A stretch of 64,000 nucleotides of DNA, taken from the IMG/VR virus record IMGVR_UViG_3300027365_000007; one strand, given 5' to 3'. The translations under genes were made by a program, and so were the position numbers. Shown piece after piece: positions 43,349 through 46,308 of this stretch; positions within the stretch are counted from its first letter, which is position 1; every line of letters begins with the position of its first letter. The notes under the pieces are model-generated. The model saw only the letters and a program-made list of their open reading frames with translations, did not search any database and had not been told where the DNA came from. Origin of the DNA: a virus. Lineage: Duplodnaviria; Caudoviricetes.

Positions 43349-44866
43349 TTAAAAGAATTCTTCATCGTCATCATCCATGATGAACATATCTTTAAATTTG
43401 GTACCTTTCCTTATAAGGTTCACATCCCATCCAAGAACACCAAAGATTGTTAGTAACGGTTTATAGTATATTGTTTCTAACATTAGTTCTGTATCAAATG
43501 GCATTTCTTTAAACCAATCAGGAAATTGGGTCTGGTCAGTCAAATACGAAATATTCGTATAACCAAAATCATTTTTCCTCAGTTTACAGGTAACAACTTT
43601 AGATTGATCACCAATTCTTTCAATATGTTCTTCATTATTAATGTCCAATTGCTCATTCCATGTAATTGCTCCTGCAATCGCTCCCGGTATGGTAGGTTTT
43701 TTACTTATTTCCCCGTTCACATACTTATAGTGCAGGTCTGTATAGTGTTTAACCGCGTTTGCACCACTCGGGCGTCCTAAAATCCATGGTGATTTTTGCG
43801 ACAGTTCATCTTTGAATTCAGTAAAGTATGTGATCACTTCATTCTCAGGAACACCATTGAGAAGCATATCCATACCTTCTTTCAACGCATCTTGGATCAT
43901 TTTAGGGGTATCTGACCTTTTTATTTGAAGACCCATGATCTTCAATTTACCACTTTTACCGTTCTTATCAAGTCGAATACCATCTTTATCAAACAAATTC
44001 ATAGCATAACGCTTTTTCTTAATAAACAATGAATGACTTGCAAGGTTTTCACGACCTGCCTTAATTATAGTTCCATTATCGATCCCAGTGTTAAATCTTT
44101 CATTCATGAAAGATGGGAAACTTTCATTAGTTTTTTCTGAAATAGAATCATAAATCTGCACGGCTAGATCACGATCATCGAACATAGCTTTGGCCATTGA
44201 CTGTTTTTCTTCATCACCAGATGCCATATAAGCCTCATAGACGGAGAAATACGATGAGTTATGAACTAATATACCATTGGCGAAAAAGTAAGGGGTGTCT
44301 TCATCAACACCAATATCATAGACATAATCATCTATCTCTCCTGTGTGAACAACATCCGCTATTTGTTCCATGACAGGTTTCGTATCTCGATAAATAATAA
44401 CATTTTCTCCTGTCTGTAACGAATGTGGTTTTTTCTCTACCATATGGCCATTCTCACACACAGTCATACAGCTATGATCCTCTGTGACAAACACGTTGTT
44501 CCCTGAAGCTGTAATTATTTGGAACATGTTCTTCTTTGTTCGATGACGGTATATATAGTCCGGTACTTTCCATAGGACACTACCATTCTCATACGAAGGT
44601 ACTTTCAATCGTTCATCAGCGGCATACTCTTTACCATGATTTTCCCACTTTATTGAGCATTCTTCAAATAATGATTCAATGTCTAATTCTCCCATGCTGG
44701 TTTCGATTAGAGTATCCTTACGAACACTATCCGTATTCTTCAGAAGTATGTTGTTACCAAAAAACCAATTATGCTCACTATTACACATACCAACATCATA
44801 TACGTACTCGTCGGAAAAATCCTCAAGTTGCTCTACCGAAACCACTTTTGTTCTTTTAGCTTTCAC
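43349..44866 (-). CDS. gp43: DNA polymerase B, C-terminal precursor: split-intein C-half + TD + cis mini-intein + 302-aa C-extein
   Basis: The extein carries SYF, GREN, FIKKKRYA and KIMGLQIKRSDTP. The GTG start overlaps the endonuclease stop. Confidence 0.92.
   Translation of the reverse strand: MKAKRTKVVSVEQLEDFSDEYVYDVGMCNSEHNWFFGNNILLKNTDSVRKDTLIETSMGELDIESLFEECSIKWENHGKEYAADERLKVPSYENGSVLWKVPDYIYRHRTKKNMFQIITASGNNVFVTEDHSCMTVCENGHMVEKKPHSLQTGENVIIYRDTKPVMEQIADVVHTGEIDDYVYDIGVDEDTPYFFANGILVHNSSYFSVYEAYMASGDEEKQSMAKAMFDDRDLAVQIYDSISEKTNESFPSFMNERFNTGIDNGTIIKAGRENLASHSLFIKKKRYAMNLFDKDGIRLDKNGKSGKLKIMGLQIKRSDTPKMIQDALKEGMDMLLNGVPENEVITYFTEFKDELSQKSPWILGRPSGANAVKHYTDLHYKYVNGEISKKPTIPGAIAGAITWNEQLDINNEEHIERIGDQSKVVTCKLRKNDFGYTNISYLTDQTQFPDWFKEMPFDTELMLETIYYKPLLTIFGVLGWDVNLIRKGTKFKDMFIMDDDDEEFF
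44258..44728 (-). mobile_element. 157-aa cis mini-intein in PolB at YGDTD|S
   Basis: Ser1 (SVRKDT), block B VTEDHS, block F YVYDI and C-terminal VHN followed by Ser. No endonuclease domain. Confidence 0.93.
44735..44866 (-). mobile_element. C-terminal half (44 aa) of a naturally split intein
   Basis: KVVSVEQL...YVYDVG...FFGNNILLKN followed by Thr (blocks F and G, penultimate Lys). Confidence 0.88.
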
Positions 44867-45728
44867 TCCACCACCTTTTTACCTTTTCAATAACATTTTC
44901 CCTGTCATTCATCCAATCCATTTCCCAAATCACATATACTTTATAACCTTGATTCAATGCATAGCTTCTTTTTCGTGCATCATGGTTCCAAATTGCTCTG
45001 GCATTCTTATCTATTTGGCTATGATGATACGAAGCTTCATAAATCCGTGCATCACAGTGCCAATAACTACCATAAAATTCAATGACTTTTTTTCTTTCTA
45101 TGGACCCAAAATCATATGGTCCAAAGTAAGATCCATCAAGTGTCACTTGGTGTTCTATTGCAGGACACACACATTTCAATGCATTATATGCCTCATTTTC
45201 TATTTTTGAAATACCCTGTGAATATAGGCGTAAAACGTTTCCCACCCTAATTTTAGCAAAATTATTGTATTTCCTACGCCCTTCATCGAGTCCGTACGTT
45301 TCAATGAAATACTCTTCTGAACAGGTATATGCTTGGCGCTTACAATACCGATCAAACTTTTCCGTTGCTTCTTCAATACCGTATTTTTTAATAAAGTTTT
45401 CCAACGTCACCGCCCTAGATTTATTAAACTCACTGTAATCTTCTTCTGACCAACCGTGTTTTTGTTTTTTATACTCAAACGTATTACTATATGCTTGTTT
45501 CTGACGGTACTCATTCCACTTCTCAGTACCAACGCCCTTCCCATATTTCTTGATAAAGTTCCCAAGAGTAAGAGACGTTTTTTTAGCAATATCATCATCT
45601 ACTAATTTGGCACCCTTGTAAAACTCCTGATATTCTCGTCCATTAGAGAACCTTCCGGTACACTTATACTTAAAATGAGTCCATTGCAATCGCGGTAATT
45701 CAACTCCGCATTCTAAACACTTTGGCAT
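44856..45728 (-). mobile_element. Free-standing putative homing endonuclease (Vsr/DUF559-like C-domain, N-terminal Cys/His motif and repeats)
   Basis: CLEC..HF..C; three (T/S)xxxFIxxYG repeats; YDF...VIEFYGSYWH...HDARK...GYKVYVIWE. Confidence 0.8.
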
Positions 45729-45740
45729 ATATGTTTCTCC

Positions 45741-45776
45741 TAGTTATGGAGACACGTGTCTCCATAACTATTTATA
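45741..45776 (-). promoter_or_regulatory. Late promoter TATAAATA (45776-45769) overlapping a 30-bp perfect palindrome (45741-45770) that abuts the endonuclease RBS
   Basis: TAGTTATGGAGACAC|GTGTCTCCATAACTA, then AGGAG and the ATG at 45728. Confidence 0.75.
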
Positions 45777-45787
45777 CCAAGGTGCAA

Positions 45788-46308
45788 TTATTCATCGAAC
45801 GATACCAGAACATCACCTTCCTGTATATCACTGGGTTTTACTTTCACAATAGTGTTATCACGTTCGATCATGACACTGTGATCTCCGGTCACTATGACCT
45901 CATTGCCGTCACTGTCAACAATCTTCCACCTAGGTTTACTCGTCTTATGGCGGTATATGTAGTTTATATCGCCATAATACGTTTCATCCTTATCAGGATC
46001 AAAGGTCTTAACTTTCATGTTATCATTGTGACTATACTCTTTCCCGTGAGATTCCTGATTCCAGAACTTATTTCCCATAGAAAAGGCTTGCTCTATGGTC
46101 ATATCACCCATAGTGGTATTGATAATAGTATCGCCTTCGACACTATCACCATATATAATAGAATCACCTAAATGTGTATACGTACCACAAATCTGTTCAT
46201 TGATATGCGAACTCATATGTCTGGTGATACTACGACCAGTTAATGTAGTTGATTGACCAATACGCTTGTCATAAAAACGACAGTATTTATTAAGCAATGC
46301 ACCGTACA
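45788..46308 (-). CDS. gp43: DNA polymerase B exon 2 (motif B YG to motif C YGD) fused to the split-intein N-half
   Basis: YGALLN...IGQSTTLTGR...IIYGD, then the intein sequence and a stop. Confidence 0.92.
45791..46144 (-). mobile_element. N-terminal half (118 aa) of a naturally split intein at YGD|T
   Basis: Ser1 SVEGDTII block A and block B VTGDHS; ends VKPSDIQEGDVLV with no F/G blocks. Confidence 0.9.

Follow-up and report, generated by a model that had tools for sequence, protein, structure and literature searches.

Naturally split inteins have been described in the family B DNA polymerases (PolB) of several phages. The Aes123 PolB1 intein is naturally split, its structure has been solved and the CL and CLm tools were engineered from it (PMC11923092). 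Further phage split inteins have been published at YGDTD/S (the slash marks the insertion point) for CP21 PolB1, LCGC14 PolB2 and GOM-OPS-1 PolB2 (PMC12707363) and for the PolB of MIJ3/PA5oct (PMC6892783). Trans-splicing in vitro is known for related split inteins of phage PolB (PMC11923092; PMC12707363), those of CP21, LCGC14 and GOM-OPS-1 contain one non-conserved Cys each (PMC12707363), and to judge from the "PolB2" names, PolB genes bearing two inteins have apparently been met before by the authors concerned. A second position, pol-c, reads YGD/TDS or YID/TDG and is shared by archaeal PolI, Mimivirus PolB and Neq Pol (PMC549080). In the fractured phage genes of gp41-1, NrdJ-1 and IMPDH-1, an N-terminal half is followed by an endonuclease open reading frame (ORF) with hairpin and control elements and then by a C-terminal half (Dassa et al., 2009; PMC2677866). 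A similar arrangement was found in a stretch of 64,000 nucleotides (the window) of the IMG/VR virus record IMGVR_UViG_3300027365_000007, a 93-kb viral fragment with an estimated completeness of 21%, where positions 44735-46144 of the minus strand hold the two halves of an intein inserted in motif C of a PolB.

It is considered about 80% probable that this element is a functional, naturally split class 1 intein which occupies the classical pol-c site in the PolB of a jumbo phage and would act by trans-splicing. The anatomy, homology, motif conservation, purifying selection and docking prediction on which this reading is built are observed or computed.

Anatomy and conservation of the split intein

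Each half is joined to a part of PolB in an ORF of its own; both of these ORFs are on one strand, with the endonuclease ORF between them. The features concerned are the following:

46145..46308, minus strand: PolB exon 2, encoding the N-extein as far as ..IIYGD in motif C (translation; SCTP-2 alignment)
45788..46144 including the TAA, minus strand: N-intein (IntN), 118 amino acids (Ser1, NX motif RH, block B TGDH; 9HTH match)
44856..45728, minus strand: putative free-standing Vsr-like homing endonuclease ORF, 290 amino acids (homology to Aes508_035)
44735..44866, minus strand: C-intein (IntC), 44 amino acids (GTG start, block F YVYD..EHNWFF, block G ILLKN)
44729..44734, minus strand: Thr-Asp, the entire extein between this intein and the next, its Thr being the +1 nucleophile of the split intein

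The ORF at 46309-45788 reads ..IIYGD/SVEGDTII.., with Ser1 immediately after ..IIYGD; the coding part of IntN spans 46144-45791 and is closed by a TAA stop at 45790-45788. Block B reads VTGDHS, and the NX motif, described for Ser1 inteins as Arg or Lys and then His (PMC10189870), lies within YIYRHKT. IntN matches the structure of the Aes123 PolB1 intein in the PDB (9HTH, E=5e-13). The IntC ORF (44866-43349) overlaps the end of the endonuclease ORF by 11 nt with its start, a GTG preceded by a Shine-Dalgarno-like AAAGGTGGTGGA, and the same 44-amino-acid C-half with an equivalent start is present in two further assemblies, L004 and P0106. The C-half ends in ..NNILLKN, giving a penultimate Lys and a terminal Asn, followed by Thr-Asp-Ser. 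The features that define class 1, namely a nucleophile at position 1, Thr-x-x-His in block B and a terminal Asn with a +1 nucleophile, are all present; the penultimate His, which is usual in this class and not obligatory, is absent, with Lys in its place. In an 18-member alignment of relatives Ser1, the RH of the NX motif, TxDH of block B, YVYD of block F, the Asn and Thr+1 are invariant.

The insertion point lies between the Asp and the Thr of motif C (YGD/../TDS), which is the pol-c position, and the Ser1/Thr+1 pair follows from this insertion point. YGD/TDS was also considered as a new insertion site and was rejected, being the classical pol-c site.

An unbroken form of the intein occurs in Salicola phage SCTP-2, a cultured phage with a 440-kb genome. 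It reads YGD/SVTHD .. NNILLKN/TDSSYF, has 163 amino acids and is 54.9% identical to the window intein over 162 aligned positions (55% for the N-half). The break in the window falls at the canonical loop for endonuclease insertion, the SCTP-2 cis form being 118+44+1 amino acids long, and because of this equality the window intein is seen as an SCTP-2-like mini-intein broken at that loop. The earlier note on this DNA, made without database searches, had given 44735-46144, halves of 118 and 44 amino acids, Ser1, a penultimate Lys and a +1 Thr, all of which proved exact on the minus strand. It had also described halves in different ORFs separated by an endonuclease gene as a fractured gene, and this description is borne out by the ORF layout, the intact motifs and the cis orthologue of SCTP-2.

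Selection was assessed against L004, the nearest independent assembly (ENA; 67-74% amino acid identity). Nonsynonymous divergence (dN) was 0.21 in each intein half with synonymous sites saturated, and dN alone is given for the halves because saturated synonymous divergence (dS) precludes dN/dS; for the endonuclease gene dN/dS was ~0.09. Judged from these substitutions, purifying selection acts on both intein halves and on the endonuclease.

Docking of IntN and IntC was predicted with the alignments of each. The pair reached an ipSAE (interaction prediction score from aligned errors) of 0.82, the best of three controls reaching 0.01, a score which shows likeness, may reflect model memory and is not proof of binding, as related split inteins have already been solved. 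Across runs at least 93% of the contacts agree, with a partner pLDDT (predicted local distance difference test) of at least 80; the mark used for docking was attained by 58/80 solved complexes and by 2/110 mismatched pairs.

The penultimate lysine and the probable route to a mature polymerase

For comparison of the C-halves, sequences were taken from fetched loci; a homology search with residues 1-50 of the C-half returned 2 matches only, by a method that depends on shared words. A Lys-Asn end was found in 0/57 C-halves from 80 IMG/VR loci, the penultimate residue being His in 36/36 others at YGD/TDS and in 21/21 at YGDTD/S. Penultimate Lys is limited to a small clade of four members (the window, L004, P0106 and SCTP-2), and the split form with KN/TDS and xHNWFF was seen in the further assemblies L004, P0007 and P0106. 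Its members share a block-F His (E/N-H-N-W-F-F) that is absent from the common form at YGD/TDS. A block-F His can replace the function of the penultimate His, and phage inteins often have penultimate Gly, Lys or Ser and still splice (PMC5050341). It is therefore probable, as far as the motifs allow, that the missing penultimate His is compensated by the His of EHNWFF. The Lys-Asn/Thr junction is moreover taken to be splicing-competent because the cultured phage SCTP-2 bears it in its PolB. The earlier note had regarded both Ser1/Thr+1 and LKN as atypical: the former follows from the pol-c site and is found in dozens of metagenomic inteins, while the latter is indeed rare. A penultimate residue other than His is not new in itself, as Lys at this position is already documented in phage inteins (PMC5050341).

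Several points weigh against a functional split intein. The penultimate His, the helper of Asn cyclisation, is replaced by Lys. The N-half alone scores 30.8 bits against Pfam Intein_splicing, under the gathering cut-off of 35.8; the GTG start of the C-half stands a short spacer after a Shine-Dalgarno-like GGTGG; and Thr-Asp is all that the split intein has as C-extein before the next intein, so that steric interference is conceivable. With the record ~21% complete, a second polymerase elsewhere in the genome is also possible.

One rival reading is that the intein is decaying, the change from His to Lys together with the split leaving halves that only cleave or stall, in a polB copy that would be non-functional or dispensable. 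Such decay would fit a Lys at a position where 36/36 other C-halves at YGD/TDS from the IMG/VR loci have His, and a record ~21% complete, beyond which another polymerase may exist. It is nevertheless considered unlikely, as the cultured SCTP-2 has the identical Lys-Asn junction in its one PolB gene and KN is kept together with the block-F His in four diverged members. The dN of 0.21 with saturated dS and the intactness of all remaining catalytic residues also speak against it, and splicing without a penultimate His is known (PMC5050341; the Ssp DnaE structure paper, as it is cited in PMC4031507).

The intein could otherwise serve as a dimerisation module, joining the polymerase fragments by non-covalent association and without ligation. 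Docking of the halves is predicted, intein-less split gp43 exists in some T4-like phages (Aeromonas phage 25, as cited in PMC2677866), and gp43A and gp43B of Aes508 are separate. A Hint domain of ~160 amino acids left inside YGD/TDS, between the catalytic aspartates, should however disrupt the active site, and pairing alone would not demand conservation of Ser1, Asn, Thr+1 and the assisting residues, which makes this explanation very improbable. An artefact, in which frameshifts falsely broke a cis intein that contains an endonuclease domain, is conceivable for a metagenome-derived viral contig but was rejected as scarcely credible. The endonuclease ORF is equipped with a promoter-like box, a hairpin, a ribosome-binding site and an ATG of its own and is flanked by a clean stop and start, and the identical layout recurs in the independent assembly L004 and in dozens of other loci, where ~1013-1031 nt separate the IntN ORF end from the block F motif of IntC.

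Under the preferred reading of a functional split intein, a free-standing Vsr-like endonuclease gene would have been inserted into an SCTP-2-like cis mini-intein at the usual loop, supplying a stop for the upstream half and a start for the downstream half. Expression would begin with RNA splicing of the group I intron described below, yielding an N-precursor of PolB residues 1-625 plus IntN; the C-precursor would consist of IntC, Thr-Asp, the cis intein and the PolB C-terminus. IntN and IntC would then associate into one Hint fold, in which an N-to-O shift at Ser1 would form an ester at the N-junction (the class 1 oxyester pathway) and attack by Thr+1 would give a branched ester. Cyclisation of Asn44 would free the intein, and an O-to-N shift would form the peptide bond and rebuild YGD-TD. 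Separate self-excision of the cis intein two residues downstream, whether earlier or later, would leave YGDTDSSYF. It is expected that excision is needed for enzyme activity, because the break falls between the catalytic aspartates of motif C and no other PolB was found within the 93-kb record.

The endonuclease gene and the pieces of polB

The 290-amino-acid ORF between the halves is 30% identical to Aes508_035 (BLASTP, E=6e-34), which in Aeromonas phage Aes508 is encoded between the PolB segments annotated as N-intein and C-intein and whose C-terminus is marked as VSR-like in GenBank. Orthologues beginning M-(P/I)-K-C-(L/K)-E-C-G stand between intein halves in the loci L004, L005, L016 and L045. 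Profile matches were to phrog_22677 (6.8e-42), weakly to phrog_13076 "endonuclease" (6.5e-4) and, below the cut-off, to Pfam REase_MTES_1575 (E=0.0049); a PDB search with the endonuclease gave no meaningful match, and the motifs YDF, YWH and HD were picked out by eye only. The Vsr-like label hence depends mostly on homology with the Aes508 protein, the direct profile matches being weak and a PDB match absent. The ORF is read as a Vsr-like homing endonuclease with putative cleavage and homing activity. The endonucleases of Dassa et al. (2009) likewise have a Vsr-like C-terminal domain (PMC2677866). The N-terminal two thirds of the protein (residues ~50-185) begin with CxxC..C and contain three ~33-amino-acid units repeated in tandem (..NFIKKYG..KW..Y..QA.SN..EY). 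This repeat region matches phrog_22677, a family whose function is not known, and is presumably the DNA-binding part.

The endonuclease gene has an ATG and a GGAG ribosome-binding site of its own (45740-37). It is preceded by TATAAATA at 45776-45769, which resembles a T4 late promoter, and between this box and the GGAG lies a perfect 13-bp hairpin (45768-45743). The spacer folds with -25.8 kcal/mol (z-score -6.5), and in its outer helix the endonuclease AUG is base-paired to the TATA region. From this arrangement it would seem that read-through transcripts yield no endonuclease and that the late promoter alone drives its expression. Such control elements are reported to arrive with endonuclease genes of this kind (Dassa et al., 2009; PMC2677866). 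A terminator scan of the minus strand between the halves gave nothing convincing.

The remaining features of the locus are:

46557..48267, minus strand: PolB exon 1, exonuclease domain to motif B, ending ..KKINLNA plus T (ORF 48267-46555)
46309..46556, minus strand: ORF-less group I intron of 248 nt in PolB motif B (Rfam RF00028)
45729..45787, minus strand: spacer of 59 nt 5' of the endonuclease gene (sequence, fold)
44258..44728, minus strand: cis mini-intein of 157 amino acids at YGDTD/S, Ser1 .. ILVHN/S (Pfam Intein_splicing 9.6e-13)
43349..44257, minus strand: PolB C-extein, SSYFSV.. to the stop (phrog_262 DNA polymerase 1.7e-48; SCTP-2 alignment)

PolB, a family B polymerase resembling T4 gp43, is thus present in the window as several pieces, all on the minus strand. 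Exon 1 matches Pfam DNA_pol_B_exo1 (1.4e-20) and DNA_pol_B (1.9e-11), and the nearest PolB is that of SCTP-2, with 60.6% identity. The predicted mature PolB has ~929 amino acids, compared with 926 for the SCTP-2 PolB minus its intein. The group I intron reaches 95 bits with RF00028, for which the gathering score is 50 (E=2e-25). Its ends were set at 46556/46309, so that T46557 joins TG46308-46307 to give ..LNA-L-YGALLN.., matching SCTP-2. In a megablast search against GenBank phages short matches alone were obtained, all to this intron and from group I introns of Acinetobacter and Staphylococcus phages; no near-identical DNA was found.

It should also be noted that in some loci only 36-230 nt separate the intein halves (L022:4528-4735, L039, L041, L053, L056 and L080:4999-5106). 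On sequence grounds these are loci in which the endonuclease gene has been lost and the gene is still fractured. Some relatives have an additional break in polB, upstream and without an intein (L005:3271-4995, L002:2585-3391), which is occupied by another free-standing endonuclease; in L005 the occupant is a DUF723 ORF of 574 amino acids, in Aes508 one of GIY-YIG Seg-like type.

Adjacent inteins and comparison with known systems

The cis mini-intein is a paralogue of the split intein (36.5% identity), and two inteins Thr-Asp apart in motif C recur: they are found in the window (44258-46144, minus strand), L004:3214-5068, L068:3779-5989 and L080:2360-6101. Among the 80 IMG/VR loci, 51 have a split intein at YGD/TDS only, 20 a split intein at YGDTD/S and six a cis intein at YGDTD/S. 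Both inteins are cis in L068, and L080 has a cis intein at YGD/TDS and a split one at YGDTD/S. The one combination left, split at YGD/TDS and cis at YGDTD/S, is that of the window and L004; L080 shows its reverse, with no endonuclease gene. Among 95 protein matches in public metagenomes, split N-halves number ~37 at YGD/S and >25 at YGDTD/S.

In sequence the window intein is nearer to the inteins at YGDTD/S than to the common form at YGD/TDS, most plainly in the C-half, with GM.N..H.WFFGNNIL as against SI.NQD-PFFFANDIL in the common form. In a tree of concatenated N- and C-halves the Lys-Asn clade is sister to inteins of the YGDTD/S site (L006, L068, L080; support 96/98). An approximately unbiased (AU) test does not reject a single clade for the YGD/TDS inteins (p=0.086 with N+C, p=0.38 with the N-half only), the grouping having been chosen after the tree was seen and the archaeal and giant-virus pol-c inteins having been left out of the trees. 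It can be suggested, tentatively, that the window intein derives from the YGDTD/S lineage and moved two codons upstream, with a change of the +1 residue from Ser to Thr followed by loss of the penultimate His and reliance on the block-F His. If this were true, the two inteins would represent lineage exchange between sites six bases apart, served by one Vsr-like endonuclease family, and trans-splicing of the one and cis-splicing of the other would be coupled via the shared two-residue extein.

With respect to possible uses, few cysteine-free split inteins active at ambient temperature have been characterised (Aes/CL/CLm, LCGC14, PolB16), all with Ser+1, and such inteins are sought for protein ligation. 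The earlier note had described Cys-free junction chemistry and a possibly orthogonal tool. The junctions are indeed without Cys; IntN contains none, but IntC holds one, at a non-conserved position where relatives have Lys, Ser or Arg. The pair may plausibly be orthogonal to other split inteins. LCGC14 is orthogonal to the Aes-derived CLm, and the distance between LCGC14 and Aes (35%) is about that between the window intein and Aes (38%). A presumably mesophilic Ser1/Thr+1 pair with Lys-Asn would be a candidate for such a tool and a natural test of splicing without the penultimate His. The locus is also a further example of homing endonucleases fracturing essential phage genes. Its value is incremental, because dozens of comparable sequences are present in public metagenomes.

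As for known systems, the SCTP-2 PolB cis mini-intein (MF360958, gene 179; Imam et al., 2019; PMC6892783) shares the YGD/TDS site, Ser1, Lys-Asn/Thr and EHNWFF with the window intein. It differs as a single polypeptide with no endonuclease gene, in a PolB that has neither the intron nor a second intein. The metagenomic split inteins at YGD/TDS (e.g., L005, L036, L042) have Ser1/Thr+1, 116+42 amino acids and an endonuclease of the same family; they differ in their penultimate His and in having no block-F His, and form a separate clade with IntN 38-43% identical. The PolB1 inteins of the T4-like Aeromonas phages Aes123 and Aes508 (9HTH; PMC11923092) resemble the window in being a fractured gene at motif C with Ser1, the NX motif and 120+39 amino acids. 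In Aes508 the halves are likewise separated by a homologous Vsr-like ORF (E=6e-34), and further upstream the gene contains a group I intron. These inteins differ in their site (YGDTD/S), Ser+1 and penultimate His and are 38.4% identical to the window intein; their insertion position holds the separate cis intein in the window. With the cysteine-less class of Aes123 type the window intein thus shares Ser1 and the NX motif, differing in site, +1 Thr and its one Cys.

The inteins of Dassa et al. (2009) differ from the window intein in having Cys1 and other host genes, PolB being absent from the eight enzyme types reported (PMC2677866). Neq Pol of Nanoarchaeum equitans (Choi 2006; Gordo 2018; as cited in PMC11766414 and PMC549080), compared by description, is likewise a split class 1 intein with Ser1/Thr+1 at pol-c. 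It differs in being archaeal and thermophilic, with 98+30 amino acids and genes far apart with no endonuclease gene between them. A PolB host, which the earlier note had set apart from known fractured genes, is accordingly no novelty, being preceded by Neq Pol, the Aes508 annotation, Aes123, CP21, LCGC14, GOM-OPS-1 and MIJ3/PA5oct. By sequence comparison, what is new is a fairly divergent Lys-Asn member of a kind that is itself known; no named protein is more than 55% identical to it, and the Aes intein, which has been characterised, is 38% identical.

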